Positions 1-26,659 of a DNA stretch of 64,000 nucleotides are shown here, piece after piece. The stretch spans positions 14,237 to 78,236 of IMG/VR virus record IMGVR_UViG_3300037041_000399; one strand, 5' to 3'. This DNA comes from a virus. The translations under genes and the position numbers were made by a program. A model generated the notes under the pieces. The model did no database searches. It had not been told where the DNA came from and saw only the letters and a list, made by a program, of their open reading frames with translations. Each line of letters begins with the position of its first letter. Positions within the stretch are counted from its first letter, which is position 1.

Positions 1-5
1 CAGAA

Positions 6-1385
6 TTGCCAGGCATTACAGCACAATTTGCTAAGATGCTAGTAGGTGGTATGTTGAGAAAACCCCCTATTATTGAATTACCTGAGAATGCGCCTGAAGA
101 AGCATTAGACTGGCTTACTAATAACATTGGTAGAGATGATTGTACTCTTGTAGCTTTCTTAGATGATATCTTATGGGAAGAAGTACAGACTTCTAGAGCA
201 TGGATATTTGTAGATTATCCTAATGTAGAAAATCCAGATGCACTAGATAAAGAAGTTAAAGATCAAATTAAACCATATCCTATCTTGCAAAAAGCTGAAA
301 CAATTATTAACTGGTCTACTACAACAAATATGTTTGGCAAGACAGTATTAAATCGTGTTATTGTAAAAGGATATATGGATGATTATTCTGTAAACGAATT
401 TCATGCCACTCGTGTGCCTGCTGTTTGGGTACATGAATTAGATGAGAAAAATGAGTACAGAATTAGAATTTATGCTGGTACTGTTGCAGACAATGGTGAC
501 CAAACAATTAAGCCAGGGGATGCTGCTAGTAGAGGCGATCGTTTATTACCTTCAGGCGGCTTTGAGTTAGTAGCAGTTTTAGACAGCATTATGTCTAATG
601 GTGAAAAATTAACTCACATCCCTGCATGGCCTTTGAACGGCAATATCACTCCTGTAACACCCTTGTTAGCACCTATTGTTGACAAAGAAATTAGCTTGTA
701 CAATAAGATTAGTAGACGTAATCATTTATTATATGGTGCTTCTACGTATACACCTGTTATTGCATCTGATATGCCAGACGAAGAATTTGAGGATATTGTG
801 AATTCTGGATTAGGTGCTTGGATACGACTAAGACAGGGCGATACAGCGACTGTACTAGAAACGCCTACAGCAGCTTTAGCAGATATGCAGGCGGCTATTG
901 CAGCTACTATGGATGAGATGGCTAAGCTTGGTATTAGAATGCTAACAACAGAAAACGAACAATCTGGTGTTGCGTTAGAGATACGTAATGCCTCTCAGAC
1001 CGCACAGTTAGCTGTTTTAAGTACTAAAATATCAAATACAATGAAGCAAGTTATTTGCCTAATGCTTAACTGGCGTTATAACTTAGATTGTGAAGCTTGT
1101 GATATTACATTTGAGCTGTCTGCAGATTTTGATCCAGTACCATTAGGCGCTGATTGGCTAAACTTAATTACACAATGGTATCAAGGCGGATTATTGCCAA
1201 GATCTGTTTGGTTACAAATGTTGAAAGCTAATGATATTCTAAATGCTGAATATGATGACGAAGAGGCATTAGCAGAAGTTAATAACGATCAGCAAATTAT
1301 CCCTGCTGCAACTAAATACAATGATCAGTATGCCTTGCAAACTGAGGCAGCTGCAACTGGAAAGGCCTCTGCGCCTAAGGAGTAA
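6..1385 (+). CDS. Portal protein (DUF4055/SPP1-like), probably 5'-truncated by the window edge
   Basis: First gene of the head cluster; helical C-terminal half (SGVALEIRNASQTAQLA...SADF...LKANDIL) typical of siphovirus portals; followed by MuF, scaffold and capsid genes. Confidence 0.8.
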   Translation: MPGITAQFAKMLVGGMLRKPPIIELPENAPEEALDWLTNNIGRDDCTLVAFLDDILWEEVQTSRAWIFVDYPNVENPDALDKEVKDQIKPYPILQKAETIINWSTTTNMFGKTVLNRVIVKGYMDDYSVNEFHATRVPAVWVHELDEKNEYRIRIYAGTVADNGDQTIKPGDAASRGDRLLPSGGFELVAVLDSIMSNGEKLTHIPAWPLNGNITPVTPLLAPIVDKEISLYNKISRRNHLLYGASTYTPVIASDMPDEEFEDIVNSGLGAWIRLRQGDTATVLETPTAALADMQAAIAATMDEMAKLGIRMLTTENEQSGVALEIRNASQTAQLAVLSTKISNTMKQVICLMLNWRYNLDCEACDITFELSADFDPVPLGADWLNLITQWYQGGLLPRSVWLQMLKANDILNAEYDDEEALAEVNNDQQIIPAATKYNDQYALQTEAAATGKASAPKE

Positions 1386-1959: not shown

Positions 1960-4900
1960 ATGGCCGTTAATGCTAACACACAAATTTATGACAAGACGCT
2001 AGATCGTGCTGCAATGACACGCCTTTATGAAAGAAGAGTCTCCGGAAAAGTAGATTTAATCATTGATGGCCATGTCCTACGTCTTGACAAATTAATAAAA
2101 GCTTTTGAAAGTATGAACCCCTTTCGTAAAGAACTGGATAGAGAACTTACAAAGACTTACAAAAATGTAAATAATACTGTACATAAAGACTTATTGTCTT
2201 TAACAACAGACCAGTTATCTTTTGCCTATCAAAAGGTGGAAGTAGCTATGGGTAATATTTGGCGTACAGAAAGACCTAAGCAAAGAGTTGCAGAAGAAAT
2301 AGCACTAGCAAATCCACTTCACAAAAACCAAACAATGGAACAAGGTTGGAGTGGGATTGCTAATAATGAAAAGATTAGACTAGAAGCTGTAATACGTAAA
2401 GGTATTGCTGACGGAAAGACAATGGACCAGATAGCTCTTGAAGTTCGTACTGGTAATGTACATAAGATTACAAGAACACAAGCTAAGGGTTTAGTTATTA
2501 CTGCTGTTACTTCTGTGTGCTCTCAAGCTGATCATGCAATCTATAAAGCAAATGGTAAAGCCTTACAAGGGTGGCAATATGTATCTGTTCTTGATGCTCG
2601 CACAACCCCTATCTGCGCTGGTCGCGATGGGCATATTTATGACATTTCTGATACTGTACATCTCCCTCCAGCTCATTGGCATTGTCGTTCAACAACTACT
2701 CCTGTGTTTAAATCATGGGAAGATATGTCAAAGCTTGAAGGAGTTGCACAGGTTCGTAAACGAAACTTAGCAGGACTTACGGATGATCAGAAAGCCTTTT
2801 ATGATGGCAATACACCATTAAGAGAAAGTTATAATGACTGGCTGCTAAGACAACCTCAAGACATCCAATTAAGACACTTAGGTGATTATAAAAAAGTTAG
2901 TATGTTTAATAGTCAGCAGTTAACTTTAGACAAATTTACGAATGATGAAGGCAATACTATTGGTATTACTGAACTGAGACGTATGACGGACTCTACGTAT
3001 ACTCTTCCAAATGATACACAAAAGTTTGCTAATGCTAAAGCTAAATTAGATGCGATGCAATTACATGCAACAACGCCTGAAGCCTTTTATCAAGATACAA
3101 AATTAGTAAATACATTAAGAGATTATTATTTATTACAAGCTGGCGAATTAGATGGTACTCTATCCCTCACAAACTATCGCGGTTCCCTCTTACATACCAA
3201 GAAGGCTACCAAATCACGAGTACTCAACAGCTTGCCAACAGAAGAGCAAACAATCTTCAATCCAGTTACAGGTCGTTACGAAGACGTCAGATTGTACCAA
3301 CCAAACGTTGAGGTATTAAATAATAACCTAAGATTACTACGTGAAAGCCCTGTATTAAAGCAAGAAGATAAAGACTTCATTGAGAAGTTTATTGGCAGTC
3401 TTGATGAAAAGATGGGTGCTAATGAAAGAGCTGCTGTAGCAGATAATCTTCGTATTATATTCACTAGGTTCCGTAATAACGGAGAGCAATGGGGTAACTT
3501 CAAGGCTGTAGTACAAGGTCAGATTAAGTTTGATGTAATGAATGTATCAGATTCTCTTGAAACACAATTAAGAAGAGATACTGATGTACTTAAGAAATTA
3601 ACGCAAGACAATTACATTGACCCTATACTAGGCCCTACTCAGCTACAAGATCTTCATGATAATTTTATCAACAATATTCGTGCTAGAAATAACTGGGAAG
3701 ATAGTGTTGCTCCTAAGATTGCTAGAGAATTACGCAATGTATTTGATTACAAGATACCTATTAAATTAAAAAGAATGCCTAATGGCAAAGAACGATTATC
3801 AGAAGCTGATTTAGATCAATTTTATTTACGATTTGCGCACAGATTAAGTATGGCAGATATGCCGGATAGAGATCAATTTGCAGTTGCATTAGGACGTGAC
3901 TTATATAATATGTCAGGCTTAAATGGTAATCGCAAAGAATGGTATGATTTAGGGATGTCAATGTTAGAAGCAAAGAATGTTACTAAGTTCTTTGAAGTAG
4001 AAACATTTGGCGTTCAAAAGCGAAGAATGAAAAGCAGATTGAGCAACAGTCTGTTTGGCCCTTATTATGACACTCTGTCATATAACATACGGGTTACTGA
4101 TCCTCGTGTACAAGAGTATGCGCAGCTCACAAGGAAAGTGGAAGTCGGCCTACGTGTTGGCGTTACATCTGAGAAGAACAAGTTGCTATTCCGCGAGGGT
4201 TATAAAACGTACTTTATTGACAGAGGTCTCCTAGGTTTAGAAGATACTCGTATTCCCATTACATCTACAAACAGCTTTAGTGATTTTCCTGAACAATTTG
4301 TTGATAAGAACCTAGCTAATGCTTTAAATTGGGCATCAAAGTCTAAGTATAAAATTGACGAAGATTTTTATGATTTTACAAAGAAATTATTGTACTTCGA
4401 AGATGATAGAGGCAACGCTAAGAAGTATAACGAATTGAATGAATATAAACACTATATTTCTTCTAGGGGAGATGCCTATGAAAGATTCAAATCGATGGAC
4501 TGGTTACGGACACGAGGATATTCTTTTAGTAATCATGCTTTTGTTGACCATCGTGCTCGTATATATGATCGCGGACTCATTAGTCCTCAGTCAGGAGAGT
4601 CCTTCAGACCATTCCTTAATACCGAACAATCAAAAGTGTTGGGTGAGGCTGGATACAGAAACTTCAGAGACCAAATAGGTGCATTTATGGGCGGTCTTAA
4701 TGATACTTTTGAAGGGCGATATAATTCATTATCCTTTACTGGTAGACAAAAGATTGCTGATAAGCTATGGCCAGATATGGTAGATATTGGCAACAAGATG
4801 CTACGTGGTAAGCCTGCTGATCTTCGTGCTATATTAGAATCAGAAATGGTACAATTAGTAGATGGTGAAGAACTAGGCAAGTTCTTTAGGTTTGCTATGG

Positions 4901-7275
4901 AATCAGCTAAGATAGATAATCATTTAAAAGCTGGTGGTACTATGGAAGACTATAAGACAGCCTTAGCTTTAGAACAAGATGCTTCATCTTCTGGTGCTCA
5001 AATTATTGCATTAACAACAAAGAACAAACAGTTAGCTGAATTATCTAATGTTGTACCTACAAATCAAAAACGTAGATTGTACGATGAGATTGCTGCTGCC
5101 ACTTATAATGATCCTCGTTTTAAAGTATTAAACGAGAAGTTGGGGTTAAATGAAAAAGATTTACGGAAGGCGGCTAAAGCTCAGAACATGGTTACTTTTT
5201 ATGGTGCAGGTGAACGAACTGGCATCCTTAATGTGGAAGGCAAGCTCGCAAAGATTTTGGAAAAGGCACCTGCAAAGCCTATAGAGGTTAAGGTAACAGA
5301 GGGTTTGTTATCTGAAAGACAAGACTCAGCTGGTTTACTACGTGTATTAGGTGTTGAAAACAAAACAGATCCAAATTATGTAGGGACTCCCGAAGAGATT
5401 ATTAAAGCTCAAGGTGATCTAATTGCTAAAGCTATGAAAGGTAAGTTATCTCCTGCAGAATTAAAAGATACATTTAAATGGTTACATACTGCTGATATTG
5501 AATTGACAGATGCTCGTAGAGAAAGAGCTACATATAAAACATTTGATCATAAGACTGGTGAAAAATTCTCTAAAGAAAAGATAGCTGAAAATAAGGCTAA
5601 ATTTGAACAGCGCTCAAAAGGCGATACTAAGAAATATATTGCTATGCAAGTTGTAGAAGAACTCGGTGAGTTTTTGGATGAGCATTTAAAATCTTTAAAT
5701 GTCCCTTCCAATTCAAGAGCTTTTAAATTACTAGAAGCTCAAAAGCGTATCTTAAAGTCAAATAGATTTGGTGAAGACACTATTATTAAAGATGAAGCTA
5801 GTGTTTATAATTTAAAGACAAATAAACAAGCTGCTGAAATGGCTTTAGAAGATGCAGAATTTACCGTTGCTACAGCTGATACTGAAAAGACTATAGCAGA
5901 TCTTAACTTAGCATTACAAGAAGAATTAGTCAATGTAACTAAAAAGCCTGAATCTTTTGCATCTACTTTAGTTGTTAAAGCATCTGATCGTGATAAGGTA
6001 CTTAATGAAATATCTGCAAGAGCAGCGAGATACGAAAGGTTTGACCCTGAAACAGCTAATGAGCTTAAAGAACTCAGAGCGAATGTACGAGATATCTTTA
6101 ATAAAGGTCAGGATCCTGGCGACGATATTATGGAAGCGCTCTACTTCCTCGATCCAGAGACTAAACAGTTAGTTGAAAAGATGTCTCATCAATATGGCAG
6201 AGTCGTAACACCTGCTGACTTCCAAGCTATTGCTAAAATTATGTCTGAACAGTTAAGTGAGCAAGTACCTATCTTAAAAGACTTTACTAAGTTCTTTGGT
6301 AGACTTGCTGAAGACTTTTTAATTAACTCTAAGCCTTCTAAATCTGCATTTGATTGGAAAGATATTGGTGCTACTGGTATTCTAGGCACACGTAAGAGAG
6401 GTTATGTACTACCTGATCGTGTGAGTGAAATACTAGGGTTAAAAGCTGGTGAGCCTCTGTCTGAAAAGTTTTTGAGCAGATTTAACGGATGGAAACCAGA
6501 CGGACCTTTATCGGACTTACTATTTGGTGTTAAAGCACCAGATAATAGACGTACAGGTTTTAAAGTCTTTAAATTAGAACCTATTGAAAAAGCAACTATA
6601 TCAAAAGGTTTTGAAATATTCTATGCAAATAAACTTCCTACGTCATGGACTAATGTGCCTTGGGTTAATTTTGACGGTAAAATTATCGAACAAAATTTCA
6701 CTCAGACATTTGAGGAGCGTCTAGCTTATAAGGATAAAGACGGGAATTGGGTTAACAATATACTACAAATACCTCAAAAGACAGAAGCTACATGGTGGGA
6801 ACAAGTCGTAAACGCAGATGGGAAAATTAATGATATCGCAGACGCAGGAAAAGCAAGAACAGCTTTTGCCGTTAACGGGAACCATTCCAACGACGCCACA
6901 TTGGTCAAGAATTTCCATTTGTGGGGAAAGGAAAATGATATTGCCACAAGTACAATCCACGATGCCTTCTTTGCAAACGCAGCAGATATGCTCAATGCAA
7001 GAGCAGGGATTAGAAAGTTGTATGCACGAACTCTTGATGCGTCACCCGTCTTATCTACTCTGAATGAGATGAAAGCTCGCGGGTTGCCTAAAGAACTATA
7101 TGATCAGTACTTACAAGAAGCTATTGACAAGGGATTAATACCTGTAGAAGGGGTGTCCGTTGTTGGCGGCAAAGTACTAAAGAAATCCGATATTCTCACC
7201 AAAGAGAATATTATGTCAGATATACCTGATCCTACTAAATTTGAGGATGATTGGGGTTTTTATGGCATAGGCTGA
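1960..7275 (+). CDS. MuF/SPP1-gp7 head morphogenesis protein fused to a T7-family single-subunit RNA polymerase (candidate virion RNAP)
   Basis: aa ~205-250 WQYVSVLDARTTPICAGRDG...PPAHWHCRS (Phage_Mu_F signature); RNAP motifs DHRARIY (D863), A: EQDASSSGAQ (D1007), B: R1069-x3-K1073-x7-Y1081-G, C: NGNHSNDA...TIHDAF (D1668). Confidence 0.9.
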   Translation: MAVNANTQIYDKTLDRAAMTRLYERRVSGKVDLIIDGHVLRLDKLIKAFESMNPFRKELDRELTKTYKNVNNTVHKDLLSLTTDQLSFAYQKVEVAMGNIWRTERPKQRVAEEIALANPLHKNQTMEQGWSGIANNEKIRLEAVIRKGIADGKTMDQIALEVRTGNVHKITRTQAKGLVITAVTSVCSQADHAIYKANGKALQGWQYVSVLDARTTPICAGRDGHIYDISDTVHLPPAHWHCRSTTTPVFKSWEDMSKLEGVAQVRKRNLAGLTDDQKAFYDGNTPLRESYNDWLLRQPQDIQLRHLGDYKKVSMFNSQQLTLDKFTNDEGNTIGITELRRMTDSTYTLPNDTQKFANAKAKLDAMQLHATTPEAFYQDTKLVNTLRDYYLLQAGELDGTLSLTNYRGSLLHTKKATKSRVLNSLPTEEQTIFNPVTGRYEDVRLYQPNVEVLNNNLRLLRESPVLKQEDKDFIEKFIGSLDEKMGANERAAVADNLRIIFTRFRNNGEQWGNFKAVVQGQIKFDVMNVSDSLETQLRRDTDVLKKLTQDNYIDPILGPTQLQDLHDNFINNIRARNNWEDSVAPKIARELRNVFDYKIPIKLKRMPNGKERLSEADLDQFYLRFAHRLSMADMPDRDQFAVALGRDLYNMSGLNGNRKEWYDLGMSMLEAKNVTKFFEVETFGVQKRRMKSRLSNSLFGPYYDTLSYNIRVTDPRVQEYAQLTRKVEVGLRVGVTSEKNKLLFREGYKTYFIDRGLLGLEDTRIPITSTNSFSDFPEQFVDKNLANALNWASKSKYKIDEDFYDFTKKLLYFEDDRGNAKKYNELNEYKHYISSRGDAYERFKSMDWLRTRGYSFSNHAFVDHRARIYDRGLISPQSGESFRPFLNTEQSKVLGEAGYRNFRDQIGAFMGGLNDTFEGRYNSLSFTGRQKIADKLWPDMVDIGNKMLRGKPADLRAILESEMVQLVDGEELGKFFRFAMESAKIDNHLKAGGTMEDYKTALALEQDASSSGAQIIALTTKNKQLAELSNVVPTNQKRRLYDEIAAATYNDPRFKVLNEKLGLNEKDLRKAAKAQNMVTFYGAGERTGILNVEGKLAKILEKAPAKPIEVKVTEGLLSERQDSAGLLRVLGVENKTDPNYVGTPEEIIKAQGDLIAKAMKGKLSPAELKDTFKWLHTADIELTDARRERATYKTFDHKTGEKFSKEKIAENKAKFEQRSKGDTKKYIAMQVVEELGEFLDEHLKSLNVPSNSRAFKLLEAQKRILKSNRFGEDTIIKDEASVYNLKTNKQAAEMALEDAEFTVATADTEKTIADLNLALQEELVNVTKKPESFASTLVVKASDRDKVLNEISARAARYERFDPETANELKELRANVRDIFNKGQDPGDDIMEALYFLDPETKQLVEKMSHQYGRVVTPADFQAIAKIMSEQLSEQVPILKDFTKFFGRLAEDFLINSKPSKSAFDWKDIGATGILGTRKRGYVLPDRVSEILGLKAGEPLSEKFLSRFNGWKPDGPLSDLLFGVKAPDNRRTGFKVFKLEPIEKATISKGFEIFYANKLPTSWTNVPWVNFDGKIIEQNFTQTFEERLAYKDKDGNWVNNILQIPQKTEATWWEQVVNADGKINDIADAGKARTAFAVNGNHSNDATLVKNFHLWGKENDIATSTIHDAFFANAADMLNARAGIRKLYARTLDASPVLSTLNEMKARGLPKELYDQYLQEAIDKGLIPVEGVSVVGGKVLKKSDILTKENIMSDIPDPTKFEDDWGFYGIG

Positions 7276-7324
7276 AAAGCTATAGCTATTAACATTCTTT
7301 AAACTATACCGAAAGGACTTAAAA

Positions 7325-7789
7325 ATGGAAATTACACAAGACTTCTTGAAAAAGAATTATCATTATGGAGATGGATTTTTATATTCTATTACTACAGGAA
7401 ATTTAGTGGGTCATTTCAATGGGAGTGGGAGAGTTCAAATTACAATAAGACTAAATGGCAAAAAGAAACAATTTTATGCTCACCGTCTTATTTTCCTCTA
7501 TCATAATGGGTATTTACCAGAAATTGTAGATCATATTGATAGAGATCCTGCTAATAATAGAATAGAAAATTTAAGAGCGGCAACACCAACAGAAAGCTCT
7601 TGTAATAGGATTACACCAAATGCTTCAGGCTATCCTGGTGTAGATAAGTATAATAAAAGATGGCGTGCAAAAATTAGATATCAAAATAAATATATACATA
7701 TAGGATATTTTGATACACCTGAAGAAGCTTATAAAGCTTATAATACAACACGTCTAGAATTACATGGCGAATTTGCGCCACAAGGGTAA
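7325..7789 (+). CDS. HNH homing endonuclease with C-terminal AP2-like DNA-binding domain
   Basis: YAHRLIF...VDHIDRDPANNRIENLR (HNH_3) then SGYPGV...WRAKI...IGYFDTPEEAYKAY (AP2). Confidence 0.9.
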   Translation: MEITQDFLKKNYHYGDGFLYSITTGNLVGHFNGSGRVQITIRLNGKKKQFYAHRLIFLYHNGYLPEIVDHIDRDPANNRIENLRAATPTESSCNRITPNASGYPGVDKYNKRWRAKIRYQNKYIHIGYFDTPEEAYKAYNTTRLELHGEFAPQG

Positions 7790-7792
7790 ACT

Positions 7793-7927
7793 ATGAATAC
7801 TGAAATTAAAAGATGTAATTGTAAACACGAAGCGCAAGATAAACTCCACGGCAATGGGATGCGAGTTATGAATGCAACTCAAAAGAAAGACTTCCGTTGC
7901 ACTGTATGTGGAGCAACACATAAGTAA
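7793..7927 (+). CDS. 44-aa putative zinc-binding protein (not in ORF track)
   Basis: MNTEIKRCNCKHEAQDKLHGNGMRVMNATQKKDFRCTVCGATHK; CxC..H and CxxC motifs. Confidence 0.6.
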   Translation: MNTEIKRCNCKHEAQDKLHGNGMRVMNATQKKDFRCTVCGATHK

Positions 7928-7944
7928 CTATTTGGTTGGGAGAC

Positions 7945-7961
7945 CCCGTTAAATTAACCCT
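7945..7961 (+). promoter_or_regulatory. Repeated motif CCCGTTAAATTAACCCT, copy 1 (putative phage RNAP promoter)
   Basis: 16-nt core occurs 5 times, always in intergenic DNA and the same orientation; AATTAACCCTCA matches the start of the T3 promoter consensus. Confidence 0.75.
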
Positions 7962-8029
7962 CAGCCGTCTCCCCCTATATTATAATTAATTATAATGATA
8001 TATAATATAATATATATCTCTTATATAAC

Positions 8030-8054
8030 CCCGTTAAATTAACCCTAAATATAG
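8030..8054 (+). promoter_or_regulatory. Motif copy 2, putative late promoter for scaffold/capsid genes
   Basis: CCCGTTAAATTAACCCTAAATATAG; in T3 register (-17 at 8037) it gives TATA at -4..-1 and G at +1 (8054). Confidence 0.8.
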
Positions 8055-8127
8055 AAATTTAGAGATTCCATCATTATAGATTGTATCTGTAATATATAAA
8101 CGAGTTGTACTCAAAGGAAATAAACAA

Positions 8128-8775
8128 ATGTCTACCGAAACTGATGAAACAAAAACACAAGAAACTAATACTCCTGCTCCGGATAGTACTACTACCACTC
8201 CTCCTGTGGATGACGTGGACAGCAAAATCCAAGAAGCACTTAAGCCTATCAAATCGAAACTCGATAACGCGTATAAAGAGCGTGACGAAGCTTTAAGAAA
8301 AGCAGCAGAGTATGAACAGAAAGAAAAAGAAGCTAATATAGCACGTCTACAAGAAGAAGGAAAACACAAAGAAGCTTATGAACTTCAGTTGGCAGAAGCT
8401 AATGCAAAATTAGAGGCTGTAACAAAGCGTAACATAGAGCTTGCTCGTGATGCAGAAATTAAATCTGTATTAGCAAGTTATACGCTTAGAAATGATAAAG
8501 CTCGAGATATGGCCTATATGGATATAGCTAGCCAACTTGTACAAAATGAACAAGGTGTCTGGATTCACAAGAGTGGTGCTGATCTTAGAACGTTTGTAAA
8601 ACAATTTTCTGAAAACGACGATAATTCTTTCTTGTTTAAACAAAAAGCATCATCAGGTGCAGGTAGCACTTCATCTAGTACTACGCCTTCTACTGACACA
8701 AAACCGAAATCAATATTTCACATGTCTCAGGAAGAGGTACTAAAACTTGCGGCGGAAGGAAAACTACGCCAATAA
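8128..8775 (+). CDS. Capsid scaffolding protein
   Basis: Acidic/Thr-Pro N-terminus, coiled-coil core, S/G-rich linker and short C-terminal helix; directly upstream of the major capsid gene. Confidence 0.8.
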   Translation: MSTETDETKTQETNTPAPDSTTTTPPVDDVDSKIQEALKPIKSKLDNAYKERDEALRKAAEYEQKEKEANIARLQEEGKHKEAYELQLAEANAKLEAVTKRNIELARDAEIKSVLASYTLRNDKARDMAYMDIASQLVQNEQGVWIHKSGADLRTFVKQFSENDDNSFLFKQKASSGAGSTSSSTTPSTDTKPKSIFHMSQEEVLKLAAEGKLRQ

Positions 8776-8794
8776 ACTACTAAGGAATTAAAAA

Positions 8795-10015
8795 ATGGCT
8801 GCAACAAGCGTTAACTATACCAGCGGAACATCTGGTAATAATAACAATTATGTATTACAAGAAGCTATTGGTGCTTATAGCGATGAAGCTTACACCACTG
8901 CTCGTAAACTTTCTGGTACTGGAATCACATCTAGCAACCCACAAATTGATACTAACACAGAAACCTTTATTGGTCAAATGCGTTGGTTAAAACCTTTAAA
9001 TCCAACTATCAATATTGCGTCTTTAACAGATGCTACTGATGGTGCTAAAACTAACTATCAATCAGAATTTAGTACTTACATTAAAACTGTTCGTACTCAT
9101 GGTGCTGAAAAAGTCAACATGACTGAAGTAGTTACACGTCAAGATGGTTTAGCTAAAATTGGTCGTGACTTTGGCGAAACTCGTGCGCAAGACGAACACA
9201 ATGCAATTCTTTCTGTATTGAAAGGTGTTGCTATTTCTGAAGCACTATTAGGCACTGGCACAGGCGGCTTAGGCGGCCAAACTTTCACTAATGATCCTAC
9301 AAGCATGAACAACGGTTTCTACGTTGATTTAGGCTCTACAGGTAAAATTGTTAGTGCTAATGGTGTATCACCTGCTGGTGTTGCTAACTATGCATACCAA
9401 GGTGCATCACGTGCAGAAAGCCTTTTAAATGCGTTCGGTCAAGCTTTCAAAGACTACGAACCAGAATGGGCATACTTAGCTGTGTCTCCTGAAGTATTAG
9501 CGTCTTTCCGTTCAGCTAATTTCGTTGATGAAATTACTATTACCGAAGGCAACATGAACTTCCAAACAATCTTCAATGGTAAATTCCGTTTGATTGTTAC
9601 ACGTGCTAACCAATCTTTAAGCACTGATGAATTGACTGCCCTTAACTTAGGTGCTGGTGTTGACATTACAGGTACTAAAACCTCATTTATTATCTTACCT
9701 GGTGCTATTGCAATGGAATCATTAGCAGTGCCTGATTCTACTGAAGTATACCGTGATGCTAACAAATACAAAGGTGGTGGTGTTACTTCTGTCTGGTCAC
9801 GTTGGGGCTATGTATTAGCACCTGCTGGTTATGACTGGAATGGTGATGTAACTAAATTCCCAAGTGATTCTGATTACTCTCAATTCCGTGCTGCTGGCGC
9901 AACTGTTGCTGCTACTGGTGTTAATGCAGGTAACCGTGCAAGTGTACAAGGTGCTTGGAAACGTAAAGCGTCTTCTGCATTGTCTTTAGGTATCTTGCCT
10001 GTATTCCATTCTTAA
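8795..10015 (+). CDS. Major capsid protein
   Basis: 406 aa, strongly biased codon usage, strong RBS, position between scaffold and head-tail adaptor. Confidence 0.8.
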   Translation: MAATSVNYTSGTSGNNNNYVLQEAIGAYSDEAYTTARKLSGTGITSSNPQIDTNTETFIGQMRWLKPLNPTINIASLTDATDGAKTNYQSEFSTYIKTVRTHGAEKVNMTEVVTRQDGLAKIGRDFGETRAQDEHNAILSVLKGVAISEALLGTGTGGLGGQTFTNDPTSMNNGFYVDLGSTGKIVSANGVSPAGVANYAYQGASRAESLLNAFGQAFKDYEPEWAYLAVSPEVLASFRSANFVDEITITEGNMNFQTIFNGKFRLIVTRANQSLSTDELTALNLGAGVDITGTKTSFIILPGAIAMESLAVPDSTEVYRDANKYKGGGVTSVWSRWGYVLAPAGYDWNGDVTKFPSDSDYSQFRAAGATVAATGVNAGNRASVQGAWKRKASSALSLGILPVFHS

Positions 10016-10025
10016 GGAGTAGGTT

Positions 10026-10502
10026 ATGGCACTCGTTAAAGGTGTTAATTCTTATGCTAATTTGACAGAGGCCGATACTTATTTTGAAAACAAGTTAGAC
10101 GTGGCTGCTTGGCTTGATGCTGCTGATACTCAAAAAGAGCAAGCATTATGTACAGCCACAGCTATTCTCGATGAATTGGTATGGATCGGAGTCATTTATG
10201 ACCCTTCTCAAAGTTTGGCATTCCCTCGAAAAGATGCAGAATACTTCGATCCTAAACAAGGTACTATGGTAGAGTTATCTGGTATTCCATTGAGAATAAC
10301 AATCGCTACCTATGAACTTGCATATCATCTTTTAAACAATGATGGTCTATTTGATGACACAGGCATGGTAAAGAATCTTAATTTAGGTGATATTAGTTTA
10401 CAGACAGTGATGCCTGCTAACAAAATACCACGTATTGTAAGAAGCTATATCAACCCATTACTAACTAATAGTGGTGCAAGAACATGGTGGAGGGCTAACT
10501 AA
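10026..10502 (+). CDS. Head-tail adaptor (DnaT-like / SPP1 gp15-type)
   Basis: NSYANLTEADTYF...QSLAFPR...ATYELA motif pattern; position after capsid gene. Confidence 0.75.
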   Translation: MALVKGVNSYANLTEADTYFENKLDVAAWLDAADTQKEQALCTATAILDELVWIGVIYDPSQSLAFPRKDAEYFDPKQGTMVELSGIPLRITIATYELAYHLLNNDGLFDDTGMVKNLNLGDISLQTVMPANKIPRIVRSYINPLLTNSGARTWWRAN

Positions 10503-10843
10503 TGGCCTACAAAGGACTTATTGGAAACCAGTTGACATTGGCATTTAACATGGCTAAAGATTTAGCTGTGTCAATGACGTTCATGAGTGCCACAAAAGAA
10601 TTTGATTTTAGCACTGGTGCTGTAGACACTACTGCCTCAAGCAGTGTCATTGTAAAAGCTATTCCCGTGAAAACAAGAAAGACAAAAGACTCTGAATCCT
10701 TACAAATCTTAATTAAGAACAAGGATGTCGGTGACGTGTCTCTCTTTTCTACTGTTGTGAATGACGGCGTGGAATGGACTATTAGTGCTACGATCATCTC
10801 AAATACATACACGAGTATATTAGAACTTACGAGGTCATTATAA
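10502..10843 (+). CDS. Head closure (stopper) protein
   Basis: Synteny, size and beta-rich sequence. Confidence 0.5.
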   Translation: MAYKGLIGNQLTLAFNMAKDLAVSMTFMSATKEFDFSTGAVDTTASSSVIVKAIPVKTRKTKDSESLQILIKNKDVGDVSLFSTVVNDGVEWTISATIISNTYTSILELTRSL

Positions 10844-11247
10844 TGGGAAAATTCGTAGGTGTTGAGAAAGATATATTTAGTGTATTTGCTACCCCTGCGT
10901 GGGTGGCAGAGAGTATAAAGACATTCCCATCGAACTATATAACTGTGAATAGTGGCAAGGAATTTATCCGAGTCTCTGTGATACCTAGTGGTTACGGCAT
11001 AAACCGTACTTCTACTAGCGGTATCCTCATGATTGATATTTTTATACCTGCCGGAGGAGGCACAAGACGTGCTTTCGAGATTGCAGACACATTAGATTCC
11101 TATTTAGTGAATAAGGCTATCAGTCATTTAACCGATAATGCTCAAACCCAATTTGGGTTCAGTTCGATTAGTCCTAATGGGATCGACAAGGACAATCCCT
11201 CACTATATAGAGTCACTTACTCTATCACGTTTAACTACTTTTGTTAA
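10843..11247 (+). CDS. Tail terminator protein
   Basis: FIRVSV...GILMIDIFIPAGGGTRRAFEIADTL pattern; immediately upstream of tail-tube genes. Confidence 0.65.
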   Translation: MGKFVGVEKDIFSVFATPAWVAESIKTFPSNYITVNSGKEFIRVSVIPSGYGINRTSTSGILMIDIFIPAGGGTRRAFEIADTLDSYLVNKAISHLTDNAQTQFGFSSISPNGIDKDNPSLYRVTYSITFNYFC

Positions 11248-11256
11248 GGAATAAAA

Positions 11257-11814
11257 ATGGCGGCTAATCATATTAGTTCTATTAGTAGTGCAATGTATAC
11301 AAACCTTTGCATTACAACAGCTACAAAATCAGCTTCAGCATTACCTACTGGTGACGGTGTAGCAACACCTTTTGCCGTATATACTGCAGGCTCACCTGAG
11401 TTTACAGAAATTCGTAATATTAAAGAATTTCCTGCTATTGGTACACCAGCTAATATTGTCAAAGTGCCTGAATACGGTTCAGAAACTTCTTTCCAAATTC
11501 AAGGTCAAGCTGATGCTCCGCAAATGGAGATTACACTTAACTATGTACCTTCAGAATGGGCAGAAAATAAATTGCTTAATGGTGGCGGTATTAAAGTTGG
11601 CGATAAGAAAATCTATATGTTTAGGTTTGCTTTATTGTCTAAAGCAGCTAACAACACTCTTATCGATGGTTTTGGCGGTACTGCAAACTCTTGCTATTAT
11701 TTCTTAGGCAAATTGGAAGCCTTAGAAGTAACTCCAAGCTTAACAGACGCAATGACTGCTAAATTGACTATTTCTGTACAATCGTCAATCGTTGGCGCGT
11801 ACTCAGTTGCTTAA
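11257..11814 (+). CDS. Major tail (tube) protein, paralog 1
   Basis: IKEFPAIGTPANIVKVP...QIQGQADAPQMEITLNYVP, tail-tube-like; synteny. Confidence 0.75.
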   Translation: MAANHISSISSAMYTNLCITTATKSASALPTGDGVATPFAVYTAGSPEFTEIRNIKEFPAIGTPANIVKVPEYGSETSFQIQGQADAPQMEITLNYVPSEWAENKLLNGGGIKVGDKKIYMFRFALLSKAANNTLIDGFGGTANSCYYFLGKLEALEVTPSLTDAMTAKLTISVQSSIVGAYSVA

Positions 11815-11826
11815 GGAGATCAACTA

Positions 11827-12618
11827 ATGGCACATATTAAATCTTTGGGTGCTGCACGTTATGCAGACCTTTCTGTATCTTTGTTAGCAACCGGTACTGC
11901 AGCTGAATATACCAATGCCAATGGTATTACATTTGCGCACATGGAAACTATCTTAGCTACGATTAAATCAATTTCTGGTAAAAGTGGATTATCTTCTGCA
12001 GCTGGCGACAATACAGCATTAGCTGCTGCAATGTCAGCAGTACCTGTTACTGGTAATGCGGTTGGCTTGTTTGCAAAAGAAGCAGTAGCTTCTGGAGACA
12101 CCACTTTAAGTTTAGCTAATACTAAAAACTATATTAGAATTAAACATGTAAAAGAATTCCCTGCTATTGGTACACCTGCGAATATCGTTAAGGTGCCTAA
12201 TTATGGTAGAAAAAGTTCTTTGCAAATTCAAGGTCAAGCCGATTCTCCTACAATGGAGTTAACACTTAACTATGTACCTTCATTATGGGAAAGTAATACA
12301 CTCAGCACTGAAGACGCTAGCGGATTACCTGTTACTTCTTTTGCCAAAATTGGTGATGGTCGTGTTTATCTATTCAGATTTACCTTATTAGATACTAAAC
12401 CAGATGGCTATAATGCTATTAAAGGTACTATTACTAATGAAGATTCTATTGCTGATGATGGTAACTTGACAACTTTAACTGCTGCAGAAAACACAAGCTA
12501 TTATTTCTTGGGTAAACTTGAAGCTTTAGAAGTAACACCAAGCTTGACTGATGCAATTACAGCTAAACTAACAATTGCTGTACAATCAGATGTTTACGGT
12601 GCTTTCACTGTAGATTAA
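11827..12618 (+). CDS. Major tail (tube) protein, paralog 2
   Basis: Shares KEFPAIGTPANIVKVP, QIQGQAD, TLNYVPS and YYFLGKLEALEVTPSLTDA blocks with the previous gene. Confidence 0.75.
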   Translation: MAHIKSLGAARYADLSVSLLATGTAAEYTNANGITFAHMETILATIKSISGKSGLSSAAGDNTALAAAMSAVPVTGNAVGLFAKEAVASGDTTLSLANTKNYIRIKHVKEFPAIGTPANIVKVPNYGRKSSLQIQGQADSPTMELTLNYVPSLWESNTLSTEDASGLPVTSFAKIGDGRVYLFRFTLLDTKPDGYNAIKGTITNEDSIADDGNLTTLTAAENTSYYFLGKLEALEVTPSLTDAITAKLTIAVQSDVYGAFTVD

Positions 12619-12638
12619 TCTATATTTCCTATATGGAA

Positions 12639-12675
12639 TGCTCAACGGCTGGAGCAATTAAAACAAGAAGGCCGT
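12639..12675 (+). ncRNA. Predicted H-type pseudoknot in the tail operon intergenic region
   Basis: S1 TGCTC/GAGCA; loop ACGGCT pairs with GGCCGT (12670-12675); A-rich loop 3. Confidence 0.45.
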
Positions 12676-12688
12676 CTTTATATTAAGG

Positions 12689-12910
12689 ATGACTATGGAA
12701 TTCGATAAACCATTTAGCTTGGAATATGTAATTGGGATTACAGTCAAGCATATGCTGAAAAGCATAGATATAAGTATTAATAAAACATTCGAAAGAACTA
12801 AAGATGAGTCTCTGTCTCCTGCAAAGAAAACAGAAGCTTTCGAAACTCTCTCAATTTTACATCAAATGCGAGCACAACTAGATGAGCGCAAAATCAATAA
12901 AGGTAAGTAA
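12689..12910 (+). CDS. Hypothetical protein in tail module
   Basis: ORF with RBS aagga. Confidence 0.55.
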   Translation: MTMEFDKPFSLEYVIGITVKHMLKSIDISINKTFERTKDESLSPAKKTEAFETLSILHQMRAQLDERKINKGK

Positions 12911-12911
12911 C

Positions 12912-13229
12912 ATGTCAGAAGCAAAAGGTATTAAAGCACTTGTTGGTCAACGTATGACTAAAACAGTTAAGTTCTTAGGTGGAGATGTTAAGATCTCTAA
13001 GTTAACTGTTGCTGAAGTTTTAGAAATTCAAGCAAAAGCTAAAGACGCAGAAAAAGATGAAAACGCAGGTTTAGAATTATTGAAAACTGTTATTCGTTCT
13101 GCTGTTGAAGGCGGTTCTGACTTAGATGATAGTGATTTTGATAATTTCCCAATGGATGAATTATCACGTCTTTCTAATGAGATTATGAAGTATTCTGGAT
13201 TAGGCCAAGAAGCGGGAAAGTCTGCTTAA
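12912..13229 (+). CDS. Tail assembly chaperone (lambda gpG equivalent)
   Basis: Between tail-tube and tape-measure genes; ends in G-GGA-AAG slippery site; ATG 12912 has RBS aaggt. Confidence 0.8.
   Translation: MSEAKGIKALVGQRMTKTVKFLGGDVKISKLTVAEVLEIQAKAKDAEKDENAGLELLKTVIRSAVEGGSDLDDSDFDNFPMDELSRLSNEIMKYSGLGQEAGKSA
13214..13220 (+). promoter_or_regulatory. -1 programmed ribosomal frameshift site GGGAAAG
   Basis: Same heptamer as lambda G/T, correct phase (G GGA AAG); -1 frame is open through to the 13274-13564 ORF. Confidence 0.85.
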
Positions 13230-13564
13230 ATCCTGAAGAGCTTTCAATCTTTGAATTAGCTTTTCATCTTAAAATGCCTATCTATAAAATGTATGAAGAG
13301 ATGACTTATGAAGAACTACTAGGGTGGTTTAGTTATCTTGAACAAAGACCTATAGAATGGCGTGCGGATGACAGGGCAGCTAAGCTTATACAAGTACAGG
13401 GTGTCAAGGAAAAACCTTGGCAACTGTTTACTTCATTAGATGCTATTTACAATCCAAAATCTAATAGCAATAAAGAGGAAGGCGAATTTGATGCGAATAA
13501 CTTTAAACGCTCTGGATTCTTCCAACAGCTAATGAAAGCTTCAGGGGGAGAGGTATTAAAATGA
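13220..13564 (+). CDS. Tail chaperone T portion (gpGT-like, expressed via -1 frameshift)
   Basis: -1 frame reads VCLNPEELSIFELAFHLKMPIYKMYEEMTYEELLGWFSY..., a typical gpT-like segment. Confidence 0.75.
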   Translation, partial: VCLNPEELSIFELAFHLKMPIYKMYEEMTYEELLGWFSYLEQRPIEWRADDRAAKLIQVQGVKEKPWQLFTSLDAIYNPKSNSNKEEGEFDANNFKRSGFFQQLMKASGGEVLK

Positions 13565-13857
13565 GTATTAAAGTTACTTTAAATCTAAATGAAATTTTAC
13601 AGGCAAAAACACAAGCTGCTATAAATGATACTGTAGATACTTTAGTAGAAGCATTAAAAGCTGCCACTCCTGTAGACACTGGTCGCGCTAGAGATGGTTG
13701 GCAAAACGTAGATGGAAAAATAATTAATGATGTTGAATATATCAGTGAATTGAATGCAGGCAGCAGTAAACAAGCTCCTGCATACTTCATTGAACGGACA
13801 TTATTAGAACATAGTCAAGTAGACTCTAATGGTGTTATTGTTACACCTACAAACTAA
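13561..13857 (+). CDS. HK97 gp10-like tail completion/neck protein
   Basis: ATPVDTGRARDGW...NDVEYISELNAGSSKQAPAYFI motif. Confidence 0.75.
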   Translation: MSIKVTLNLNEILQAKTQAAINDTVDTLVEALKAATPVDTGRARDGWQNVDGKIINDVEYISELNAGSSKQAPAYFIERTLLEHSQVDSNGVIVTPTN

Positions 13858-13917: not shown

Positions 13918-16900
13918 ATGTCAGGTATAGTCATCGAAGTCGAAGCAAAGGTATCCCAAGCAGAGACTTCATTAGAACGATTAAACGATGTAGTACGAAA
14001 TATCACAGCAAGCCTTAAAGCTGTTGATAAAGGATTGGAAAATCTATCACTTAAGAAAGAAGTTCCATTAGACAAAACAGAGAAAGCTTTAAATAATTTA
14101 TCACCTAAAATCGATAAGTTGCAAAGCAGCACTGATAAGTTATTTAAAGGTTCTTCTAATGTAGATAATCGATATTCAAAGGAATTTGTTAATATTGGTG
14201 TATCTGCAGAAATGGCAGGTAAGCGAGTAGAAAAGGCTTTTAATGATATTACATTAAAACCTAACGATGCTGCATTAAAAAGTTTTTCATTTGAAATTGA
14301 TAGAACATCTAGAAAGATATCTAAACAAATGTCAGAAGGTATTTCTAAAAAAGATCTTAGAGATACTGAAAGTAGTCTATTAAACATAAATAAAAGTATT
14401 ACAGGTATTTCAGGTAATATTACAAGTGCCGTTGGTTCTATTGGTACTGCAATTGCCGCTTTTGGCTCTATTGCTACCATTGGAATGTTTGTAAAATCAC
14501 TATCAGATATTACGTCATCTTTTACTGAAATAGAATCTAAGATTGCAATGGTAACAGGGCGTACTGTTGCATTCTCAGAAGCACAACAAGCACTGTTAAA
14601 AGTTGCTGCAGAGACACGTACTACCTATGGAGCTACTGCAGATGCCTTCTCAGGTGTTGGGCGTGCTATGAAAGACGTTGGGGCAACTAGTGAGCAACTG
14701 TTCAGAGTTACTAAGGTATTGCAGCAATCGCAGGCGTTGTCTGGCGGCTCGTCAGAGGGCTTTAAAGCGGCAATGATGCAGTTGAATCAAGGCCTTTCTT
14801 CTGGCGCACTACGGGGCGAAGAACTCAATTCTGTGCTAGAACAGGCACCTGCTATTGCAGACGCACTTGCGCGGTCTTTACACGTTTCTGTAGGCGCATT
14901 AAAAGGAATTGCTGAACAAGGTAAACTAACAACTTCAGTAGTTTTCAGTTCATTGCTAAAGCAAGCCGATTATATTAATGATAAATTCAAAGCTATTAAC
15001 CCAACGCTAGGCAATGCAATGGAAGCTGGCTTTGAAGGTGCTAAACGATTTGCCTTTGAATTAGACAAAGGATTAGGTCTCTCTCAAGATCTTGCAAAAG
15101 CTGTTTCTAAACTAACATCCGGGTTAGGCACAAAAACCAGTGGCATTAGAGTCTTTGCAGCTGACTTTGATGTACAATTAAAAGAAGCAATTATACGTGT
15201 TAAATCGTATATGCAGCCTTTGACACAAGTCGTTACAGCACTGGGGCAAGAATTTTATAGAGTATTTTCTTCTTGGAAAATTCCAGAAGGTTCCCAAAAG
15301 CCTCTAGATGATCTGATACGTAAGTTTACAATATTTAAATTTGTACTTACGCATACAGACCCTGGAACAGATACTAAGATTTTATTTAGAAAAGTAGAAA
15401 CTGCAATTGTAGACAGTGTAAAAACTATCAGTGATTTATTAGATAAGGGGATAAAACTTAGCGATAAGTTTATTATGCCTATTATTGATAAGATTAAAGA
15501 TTTGTATCCTAAAGCCAGAAAAGCGTTATTAACAACCCTAGATGGTCTCAGAAGTGTCATAAAAGAATCAATGTCAGTACTTGCTGACGGCTTTGAAATT
15601 GGTGCTGAATTTGTTAAACCTATTATTAGAGAGTTGACTAAGCTGCCAGATCAGCTAATACTAATTTTTAATAAAGTAGCCAAGGCTTTAGGTAGTGCTG
15701 CTTCTGCTACCAGTTCGCTTGCTGATGGCGTTGCAGATTTATTAGATTCTGTTACCCTTAAAGTAGGTGATTTAGACGGTATTTACGAGTACTTAAATAG
15801 CTTTAAAGATAAAGTAATTACTATCTTCTTTAAAATATGGGATGCAGTTATTGGCCACTCATGGTGGACTGATACAATTGATAGTATTATAGATACTTCC
15901 AAGTCTCTTTGGGAAAAAGCTTCTCCTGGCCTTATACGCTTTAGAGATAGTATAATTGCGTTATTTAAAACTATTGCTAGTACGGTTACTACAGCATTTA
16001 ATGATGCTATGGTTAAGCTTAATATAGAACCTAAATCAGTCTCATTTAAAATACCAATAAGTATAGATGATGCTAAGGTACAATTTGAAGGCGTGTATGA
16101 CAGCTTTGTAAAAACGTTTGATAAATTTAAAGATGATTTCCCTTTACTATTCAAAGCAATAGCAGCAGGCGTTGGTGCGATTCTTGTAGGAATGTTCTTA
16201 CCTTCTGGCAATTTTGTATTATTGCTTGAAGCAGCTTTAATTTCAGCTTCGATTCAAAGTGCTACAATGTTTGCAGAAACAATTGGCAGAGACTTAGGGG
16301 ACGCAAGCCTTTTAGCTGGTTTAGGTAATAACTTAGGTGCTGCAGCTGGAAAGCTCTTTGCATCATTCCTTGCTAATATGCCACTACTTGTTAGCGCATT
16401 CCTTGGCTTTATTAGTGAATTTACAAAAGAATTCTTAAAGCAATTACCTATCATTGGAGTGGCATTTAAAGCTCTCTTCGGAATAGCTGGTGCCTTTGGC
16501 ATGGCAGGGCCTTTAGGTCTTGTAGGTGCTATATTCTTCGGCAGAGGTATATTAGGCATAATGGCAACATTTGGCTTTTATACTGAAGCGATAACGGGCT
16601 TCATGGCAAAAATGGCAATTCTTGGTAACTTCTTTGGAGGCGGTGGCGGGTTAATCTCTAGGTTATTATTTGGAGCAGGTAGAGCTTGGCATTTTCTTCC
16701 TATATTAGGATTAATAGCATCTCTATCAGGTGCTTTTGATGCATTGTATAATGATTCTAGTCTGAGTGCTTTAATCATTAATGGCGGTTTAATCTATTTT
16801 GCAATCTTTGGTAAAGGCGGTTTAGCTGGATTTGCTAAAATAGGTATGTTAGTTCGTGCTAATATTGTAGGCATACTATCAGAGTTTACTGCAACAGCAG

Positions 16901-26030: not shown

Positions 26031-26659
26031 TGATCATTTTATCAGATCATAATATACAAATGTTAGAGACTCCCGGTGCATACGCAATATTTGTGGTATC
26101 AATTTTAAATAAGGATAATGAAGTTATTTATGCTTCTACTACTCACTTTTCAGATATTATTATACCATGTGCATCTTTATTTAGTACGCCAGTCAAGGAT
26201 TTAGGCGGTTATGTAATTTCCAATATGACGTATATTGCAGATGGTTCTCTAATGGCTTTACAAGCCCCTAAATTATCAACTTCAGTGGATAGAGAGCAAT
26301 ATAGTTTAAACATTGTGGATCCAGACTTACTTATTATTGCTGCAAAATATAATGGTCTTATTGGCTGTAAACTGAAGGTTGCATGCTTGTTTGCCTCTAA
26401 TAGCAATATTAATATAGCTAAAGAAAATTTATTAATAGTGTATGCGGGTAGAATTACAGGCACAACACATACAAGAAAAACTCAACACCAAGGAGAGTCA
26501 TTTTTGACTATTATAGGCGGTTCTCCAATGTATAATTTAGATCAAAAGAATGGTATTTATTTTTCTGATCCTAAAGTTAAAGAAAGAGACCCTCAAGATA
26601 CTTGCGCAGAAAGAGTTTATATATCATCTAGAAACTATGCTTTACATTGGGGAAGATAA
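26027..26659 (+). CDS. Minor tail/tip protein
   Basis: Synteny between distal tail and hub genes. Confidence 0.5.
   Translation: MMIILSDHNIQMLETPGAYAIFVVSILNKDNEVIYASTTHFSDIIIPCASLFSTPVKDLGGYVISNMTYIADGSLMALQAPKLSTSVDREQYSLNIVDPDLLIIAAKYNGLIGCKLKVACLFASNSNINIAKENLLIVYAGRITGTTHTRKTQHQGESFLTIIGGSPMYNLDQKNGIYFSDPKVKERDPQDTCAERVYISSRNYALHWGR

Follow-up and report, generated by a model that had tools for sequence, protein, structure and literature searches.

The DNA analyzed here, referred to as the window, is a stretch of 64,000 nucleotides comprising bases 14237–78236 of a 78,236-bp IMG/VR phage record (IMGVR_UViG_3300037041_000399) that has direct terminal repeats. We label this genome G000, and we compare it with four related, nearly complete genomes, G001–G004. 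Positions 1960–7275 of the window, on the plus strand, hold one unbroken open reading frame (ORF) of 1771 amino acids in which, according to the ORF list and to Pfam and PHROG matches, a MuF head-morphogenesis module is fused to an RNA polymerase (RNAP). Here, we describe this MuF-RNAP fusion, the exclusion of cysteine from its polymerase part, and what that exclusion may say about the route by which the enzyme reaches the host cell.

Architecture of the fusion protein

Pfam and PHROG divide the fusion in the same way. Pfam places Phage_Mu_F at residues 142–246 and RNA_pol at residues 1610–1714, while PHROG gives a head-morphogenesis match at residues 53–380 and an RNAP match at residues 861–1092. 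The MuF domain (PF04233, residues 142–246) scores 52 bits against a cut-off of 29.6, and phrog_241 matches with E = 4e-58. We refer to residues ~1–380 (plus strand, 1960–3100) as the MuF module; it resembles SPP1 gp7 and holds all of the cysteines in the fusion. The position of the gene is also that of SPP1 gene 7, with the portal gene upstream and the scaffold and capsid genes downstream. In G000, the order is portal, a 187-codon ORF, fusion, scaffold, and major capsid. In G001–G004, the fusion directly follows the portal gene, and synteny of portal, MuF-RNAP, scaffold, and capsid is kept throughout the five genomes.

Residues 850–1771 (plus strand, 4507–7272) correspond to a T7-family single-subunit RNAP core, as judged from motifs, an AlphaFold model, and Foldseek. 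Four catalytic motifs can be recognized: T/DxxGR-like (R867), A (D1007-ASSSG), B (R1069..K1073..Y1081-G1082), and C (H1667-D1668). Their residues are conserved with few or no exceptions among 29 aligned fusions with identities down to 22%; R867, D1007, K1073, Y1081, and G1082 never vary, and D1668 does so only rarely. The PF00940 match to the fusion reaches 44 bits (cut-off 22) in two stretches, and 45.8 bits in frame. Sequence searches of the PDB with the polymerase part (phmmer), the MuF part, and the family profile returned nothing useful, and fold prediction was therefore used. The AlphaFold model of residues 850–1771 has a mean predicted local distance difference test (pLDDT) score of 73, with core blocks above 90. 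When the model was compared with the PDB using Foldseek, the top 40 matches were all T7 or mitochondrial (yeast or human) RNAPs, with a probability of 1.00 and template modeling (TM) scores of ~0.35 over 860–930 columns; no N4 mini-virion RNAP entry was among the matches listed. BLASTP of residues 850–1771 detected no significant homology to N4 gp50 (best E = 0.31), and BLAST similarity to T7 RNAP and to the phage's own free RNAP is weak, which argues for a very divergent T7-family RNAP and not for a gp50 homologue. On the basis of its motifs and modeled fold, the fused polymerase is a complete T7-family RNAP with intact catalytic motifs, and it is predicted to synthesize RNA on a DNA template.

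Large insertions separate motifs B and C in the fused enzyme. One of these is a cysteine-free insert of 232 residues after motif B (residues 1103–1335; plus strand, 5266–5964), delimited by the alignment consensus and modeled with low pLDDT. It is missing from most of the ~1541-residue homologues but present in P0001, P0013, and P0014. Segments resembling this insert also occur in two other proteins that are very large and nearly cysteine-free, P0175 (3748 amino acids, no Pfam match) and P0179 (GGDEF domain).

Cysteine distribution within the phage

An earlier note on this DNA, made by reading the sequence alone, reported three cysteines in the fusion, the last at about residue 242, and none in the ~1530 residues of the polymerase part; about ten in a second, free RNAP of the same phage; and none in the tape measure protein or in the product of the 187-codon ORF. 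All of these counts are exact. The cysteines of the fusion are at residues 187, 219, and 242 only. The cysteine-free stretch that follows, which comprises a linker or N-terminal region and the polymerase, covers residues 243–1771 (1529 amino acids; plus strand, 2686–7272). It includes motif A, for which the same note had pointed to a serine at the position of the T7 cysteine: the sequence is indeed DASSSG in the fusion, as compared with DGSCSG in T7 RNAP (residues 537–542). The free T7-like RNAP (plus strand, 41557–43776; 739 amino acids) serves as an internal control; it has 10 cysteines, and its motif A reads DGSTNG. The tape measure protein, identified by PHROG tape-measure matches (plus strand, 13918–25398), has no cysteine in 3826 amino acids.

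Whether this absence is surprising within the genome depends on the background that is chosen. The probability of finding no cysteine in 1529 amino acids is 2.9e-6 at the frequency for all ORFs of the genome (0.83%), and 3e-11 at the frequency for the free-RNAP family (1.57%). Against the head and tail-shaft genes (8128–13857), whose scaffold, capsid, connector, and tube proteins have 4 cysteines in 1856 amino acids (0.22%), the probability is only 0.034. The family-level evidence described below is decisive. Other virion proteins do carry cysteine: 6 of 530 residues in the portal protein, 23 of 2504 in the J-like tail tip, and ~0.64% over all other structural genes. The composition of the cysteine-free part is otherwise ordinary, with 1.1% tryptophan, 1.1% histidine, and 1.9% methionine. 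The product of the 187-codon ORF is too short to be informative, as the probability of its having no cysteine is about 0.2.

Among the structural proteins, cysteine concentrates in the tail tip (26647–34161), where it makes up 0.92% of the residues. Orthologues of this protein also contain cysteine, as do the tips of SPP1, TP901-1, and lambda.

Cysteine exclusion across the family

Of the 402 relatives retrieved by a protein search, the 120 nearest (58–87% identity) were used for a count of cysteines. With the exception of five stray single cysteines, these proteins have only the MuF cysteine pair, 23 residues apart, and none after it. An exhaustive HMMER search, run on 50%-identity representatives, extended the same MuF-only pattern to distant fusions (26–42% identity, 1100–2073 amino acids); the weak HMMER matches that are free RNAPs have 1.0–1.7% cysteine. 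The comparison of homologous fusions with free RNAPs, which the earlier note had proposed as a check on its own reading, gives a clear answer. Across 80 IMG/VR fusion loci (28–89% identity), only 2 of the 90,844 aligned residues that follow the MuF motif are cysteines, whereas 63 loci of free-RNAP relatives have 453 in 28,774 residues (1.57%), with not a single cysteine-free protein among them. A count by alignment column, which is robust to relatedness among loci, leads to the same result: although no fewer than 6,180 amino-acid changes have taken place in the fusion columns, cysteine occurs in 2 of the 1512, as compared with 84 of 739 columns in the free-RNAP family. Homologous fusions thus lack cysteine after the MuF motif, and the absence is significant.

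Several further observations bear on the nature of the pattern. Tryptophan, histidine, and methionine are at ordinary or mildly reduced levels in the fusions, which indicates that the exclusion is specific to cysteine. In each of G001–G004, the fusion has two cysteines and the tape measure protein none, while the free RNAPs have 9, 8, and 5. Tape measure orthologues ranging from 1288 to 4352 amino acids have no cysteine. The cysteine-poor pattern is also found in relatives with 46–48% GC, and >500 IMG/VR contigs retain the MuF fusion in the place that gp7 occupies in SPP1. As read from these sequence counts, cysteine exclusion is a real, strongly selected, family-wide signature.

The cysteines that are retained have a different character. 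C219 and C242 lie in the motifs TTPIC and PPAHWHCRS, and all 80 loci share C219, H239, C242, R243, and S244; most of them have histidine at position 221. C187 is peculiar to this phage, and position 187 is never cysteine in the other loci. Cysteines are present at the matching motif in SPP1 gp7 (CNCRC) and in an E. coli phage MuF protein (TTPQC ... HFCCRS), although the last cysteine of the SPP1 CRC motif is always serine at the equivalent position of the fusions. By this sequence comparison, C219 and C242 belong to the MuF signature, and they probably form a metal site. The E. coli phage protein had been considered as a cargo control, under the description "MuF-ADP-ribosyltransferase", and was dropped because it is a MuF protein of 370 amino acids only.

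Apparent exceptions to the pattern were rejected as annotation artefacts; these are homologue "fragments" of 1100–1300 amino acids with one or two C-terminal cysteines. In EBPR siphovirus 1, for example, the first half of the protein ends in ...AQNMV-KCCLV, where the reading frame runs on into an insertion that interrupts motif B and carries HNH. The fusion of this phage (L105, 6049–11422) is split inside motif B, with an HNH endonuclease gene between the halves. Several IMG/VR match spans (L040, L042–L046, and L054–L056) are 5.0–6.3 kb long instead of 4.6 kb. Self-splicing introns, or insertions of a similar kind, probably account for the interruptions of the fusion gene in relatives. In G000, where the fusion gene is intact, an HNH-AP2 endonuclease gene lies just downstream of it (7325–7789).

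Two long PF00940 RNAPs without MuF, P0243 (1048 amino acids) and P0263 (1242 amino acids), each have a single cysteine, which is residue 21 in the former and the last but one in the latter. These proteins may also be carried in virions, by means of carrier regions other than MuF.

Comparison with known phage systems

The closest functional parallel is the virion RNAP (vRNAP) of phage N4, which the earlier note had cited as a cysteine-free precedent linked to the periplasm. The precedent is sound. N4 gp50 has no cysteine in 3500 amino acids, gp51 and gp52 also have none, and N4 RNAPII has 4 and 9. Published work on N4-like phages has linked cysteine-free virion RNAPs to passage through the tail or periplasm (PMC3715699). 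Across 191 Schitoviridae, the vRNAP has 0.00075% cysteine, as compared with 0.865% for the proteome (PMC11445570). Like N4 gp50 and gp71 of the Pseudomonas phage DEV (Schitoviridae), the fusion described here places a single-subunit T7-type RNAP on a much larger polypeptide that is encoded among late virion genes. As in the N4-type systems, the polymerase is cysteine-free while a second RNAP of the same phage has cysteine (PMC3715699; PMC11445570), and the enzyme presumably enters the cell together with the DNA and initiates transcription there.

The differences from N4 are nevertheless considerable. The fusion has an N-terminal MuF domain and a C-terminal RNAP, whereas the RNAP of gp50 lies between a helical N-terminal region and a zincin-like C-terminal region (PMC5512222). 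It is also shorter, at 1771 amino acids as compared with ~3500, and it retains C219 and C242 (plus C187 in this phage) in the carrier domain. Finally, N4 is a podovirus with a gp51/gp52/gp50-type ejection operon, whereas the phage described here is lambda/SPP1-like, with a tape measure protein, Dit, and a J-like tip.

T7 offers a second comparison. T7 RNAP has 12 cysteines in 883 amino acids, the ejected proteins gp14, gp15, and gp16 together have 2 in 2261, and other T7 virion proteins have 0.5–2%. The fused enzyme shares its fold and motifs A, B, C, and T/DxxGR with T7 RNAP and free phage RNAPs. Unlike those enzymes, which have 1–2% cysteine (including, in T7, the motif A cysteine), it is cysteine-free and has large inserts between motifs B and C.

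With respect to the carrier, the fusion resembles SPP1 gp7 and Mu gpF in having PF04233, a place immediately after the portal, and an LD-x-RT...C / PP-x-H-x-x-CR motif. MuF domains are known carriers of cargo that is thought to be delivered with the DNA (PMC5512222), and the arrangement of N-terminal MuF and C-terminal cargo is that of the MuF-cargo fusions found among polymorphic toxins and polyvalent proteins (PMC5512222). Unlike other MuF-cargo fusions, the cargo here is a complete RNA polymerase, and one canonical cysteine of the CRC motif is invariantly serine. A survey of injected "polyvalent" proteins noted virion RNAP modules in N4-like phages only (PMC5512222).

The nearest cultured phages are the roseophages DSS3_VP1 and DSS3_PM1 (Naomviridae), which share a homologous fusion, a cysteine-free tape measure, and a free RNAP. 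The fusion homologue of DSS3_VP1, gp108 (1463 amino acids, 31% identity), has cysteines at positions 216 and 239 only, and it is annotated as "head morphogenesis" only. Unlike in DSS3_VP1, enzymes of the deoxyuridine (dU)-DNA pathway (PF12917 and PF00383) were not found in G000 or in the four relatives. A dU-DNA genome was considered as a reason for having a virion RNAP, and was dropped because both families are absent from G000–G004. Our literature search found no published description of a MuF-RNAP fusion, although absence from that search does not prove that the fusion is undescribed.

Possible delivery of the polymerase with the phage DNA

We propose that the MuF-fused RNAP is packaged in the virion, ejected at infection, and used for early transcription, and that its cysteines were lost through selection against thiols; we assign this reading a probability of roughly 70%. 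The MuF part would carry the enzyme into the procapsid beside the portal, and the polymerase would stay in the mature virion. At infection, it would exit via the portal and the long tail, largely unfolded, with the DNA or just ahead of it, and would then refold in the cell and transcribe the phage genes that are expressed first. For later transcription, most relatives would afterward make the free RNAP (739 amino acids in this phage). For an enzyme that spends time outside the reducing cytoplasm, threads a narrow channel, and has to refold, a free thiol would be a liability, leading to mis-oxidation and cross-links. Selection would have left the ~1500 residues that follow the MuF motif without a single cysteine, and would even have swapped the T7 motif A cysteine and one MuF CRC cysteine for serine. 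The signature fits such a virion-borne, ejected enzyme: the polymerase part is cysteine-free like N4 gp50–gp52, and the ejected proteins of T7 are nearly so.

Several points weigh against this proposal. The DSS3_VP1 paper makes no mention of the RNAP or of virion proteomics for gp108, and the literature that we searched yielded no proteomic or infection data on any family member. The two invariant MuF cysteines persist, meaning that the polypeptide as a whole is not thiol-free as N4 gp50 is; these cysteines may bind a metal, or the polymerase may travel without the MuF part, which would either be left behind or removed by cleavage. Low cysteine content is general in the head and tail-shaft proteins of this phage (0.22%), and the signature therefore marks a "virion protein" more than an "ejected protein". 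We know of no precedent for threading a 200-kDa protein through a tail whose length is set by a 3826-residue tape measure. Moreover, no free T7-like RNAP was found in G003 (L063; 98% complete; fusion 63% identical), in which the fused enzyme is the sole PF00940 match, such that a role limited to early transcription may not hold family-wide.

A different account would accept that the enzyme is packaged but attribute the lack of cysteine to the long oxidizing exposure of the virion in lake water or sediment, or to the general make-up of virion proteins, and not to passage through the periplasm. The signature would then be silent on the host envelope and would say little on ejection. We consider this account unlikely, even though the virion proteins themselves lend it some weight: cysteine is scarce in the phage's own scaffold, capsid, connector, and tube proteins, and SPP1 and TP901-1 have none at all in their capsid, scaffold, tube, or tape measure proteins, nor does lambda in its tape measure. 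In addition, Firmicutes keep cysteine out of exported proteins (PMC2823432), and the DNA comes from sediment and lake-water metagenomes. Exposure or virion composition does not readily explain why the portal, the J-like tip, and the other structural genes tolerate cysteine. It also fits poorly with an exclusion that, over 1500 amino acids and thousands of substitutions, is stricter than that in ordinary structural proteins and matches that in the ejected proteins of N4 and T7. Less probable still, and in our view improbable, is that the fusion is not virion cargo, the polymerase being freed in the cytoplasm or never entering the capsid, with its lack of cysteine stemming from a thiol-directed or oxidative host defense or from lineage history. 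The fused RNAP is so divergent from T7 RNAP and the free RNAPs that an old, cysteine-poor ancestor is conceivable. History alone, however, would not keep cysteine out through at least 6,180 substitutions, a number that argues for ongoing selection; the cytoplasmic RNAPs of the same phages, of T7, and of N4 keep 1–2% cysteine; and the MuF fusion at the SPP1 gp7 position is retained in >500 contigs. Chance, or a compositional artefact such as low complexity or a bias against TGY codons, can be dismissed almost entirely. The single-genome probability of 0.034 on the head and tail-shaft background would be compatible with it, but the 80-locus count, the free-RNAP counts, and the column test refute it. 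Tryptophan, histidine, and methionine are ordinary, the pattern holds in relatives with 46–48% GC, and proteins encoded in the same genome at the same GC content (the 2504-residue tail protein and the free RNAP) have 0.9–1.35% cysteine.

The earlier note had gone one step further, taking the absence of cysteine as independent support for ejection across a Gram-negative envelope. We agree that the absence fits a packaged, ejected enzyme, but it provides no argument for a Gram-negative host. The tape measure proteins of SPP1 (1032 amino acids) and TP901-1 (937 amino acids), both phages of Gram-positive hosts, have no cysteine, nor does lambda gpH; in SPP1 and TP901-1, cysteine is also missing from the capsid, scaffold, and tube proteins but present in the tail tips, as in this phage; and the Gram-positive Firmicutes exclude cysteine from exported proteins (PMC2823432). 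Nor is the support independent, since it is not separable from being a virion component. The two additional proteins that had been put forward do not help: a cysteine-free tape measure is equally a feature of Gram-positive phages, and the 187-codon ORF is short and not conserved. The note thus over-interpreted the signature as to the type of host envelope.

Implications

Phages with a MuF-RNAP fusion include >500 IMG/VR contigs, EBPR siphovirus 1, and the cultured Naomviridae. Virion-packaged RNAPs are known in N4-like podophages, crAss-like phages, and jumbo phages. A MuF-carried T7-type enzyme would mean that ordinary long-tailed phages have solved the same problem in a way of their own. We think it somewhat better than an even bet that a large, globally distributed group of siphophages evolved a virion-delivered T7-type RNAP independently of N4, by fusion to MuF, and convergently purged the enzyme of cysteine. 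If so, a total lack of cysteine would serve in general to recognize, from sequence alone, phage proteins that pass through the tail, and it would already point to further candidates such as P0243 and P0263. A MuF-carried enzyme of this kind would also prompt one to ask how a protein of 200 kDa gets through a very long tail.

Among the available evidence at the level of sequence, only the cysteine signature, which holds in hundreds of relatives, indicates that the life history of the fused enzyme differs from that of its free paralogue. The signature marks proteins that leave the cytoplasm or the virion, and says nothing on the Gram type of the host. The link between cysteine and ejection was already known; what is added here is its MuF-RNAP form in siphophages, which resembles the N4 vRNAP without being a member of the gp50 family.

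Genome context and host

The window opens with the 3′ part of the portal gene (plus strand, 3–1385; PHROG portal and DUF4055 matches), which encodes a protein of 530 amino acids in full. It is followed by the 187-codon ORF (1388–1951), whose glycine-, alanine-, and serine-rich product is found only in this phage and has no PHROG or Pfam match. The tail module comprises a major tail protein, the tape measure, Dit, and the J-like tip, and no sheath protein was found in it; from these tail genes, the virus looks like a siphovirus. No tRNA genes were found in the window. Upstream of the window (L170), positions 13387–13842 of G000 encode a single-domain, GH24-like endolysin of 151 amino acids directly before the portal gene, flanked by ORFs of 55 and 62 codons; no spanin was recognized near it. 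Between the terminase and the endolysin/portal region lie ~10 kb (G000 ~3346–13100, L170) of genes without orthologues in the four relatives, including those for a 412-residue tail-fiber-like protein and a 1189-residue protein with 9 cysteines and no family match.

Other lines of evidence give hints toward a Gram-negative host, namely the growth of DSS3_VP1 on Ruegeria, the single-domain endolysin of 151 amino acids, and the labels of metagenome-assembled genomes (MAGs) and UniRef entries. The cultured relatives infect Ruegeria pomeroyi, which is Gram-negative (PMC8323127). In a scan of genome contigs, the only matches to the fusion were phage-like contigs assigned to one "Gammaproteobacteria" MAG, and one UniRef entry is labeled Flavobacterium sp.; the bin in which a phage contig is placed says little about its host. 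A Shine-Dalgarno motif lies before 66% of G000 genes, as compared with 14% of random positions, and Shine-Dalgarno-like motifs precede 44–68% of genes in G000 and its relatives, as compared with 9–21% of random positions. Such strong usage speaks against a Bacteroidota host.

In lake metatranscriptomes, 23–33% of the words sampled from the fusion gene (1960–7275) were found, reflecting either RNA or carried-over DNA, and small shares of its words were found in lake and sediment sequencing runs; we use neither as evidence of expression or habitat. All long G000 genes are on one strand.

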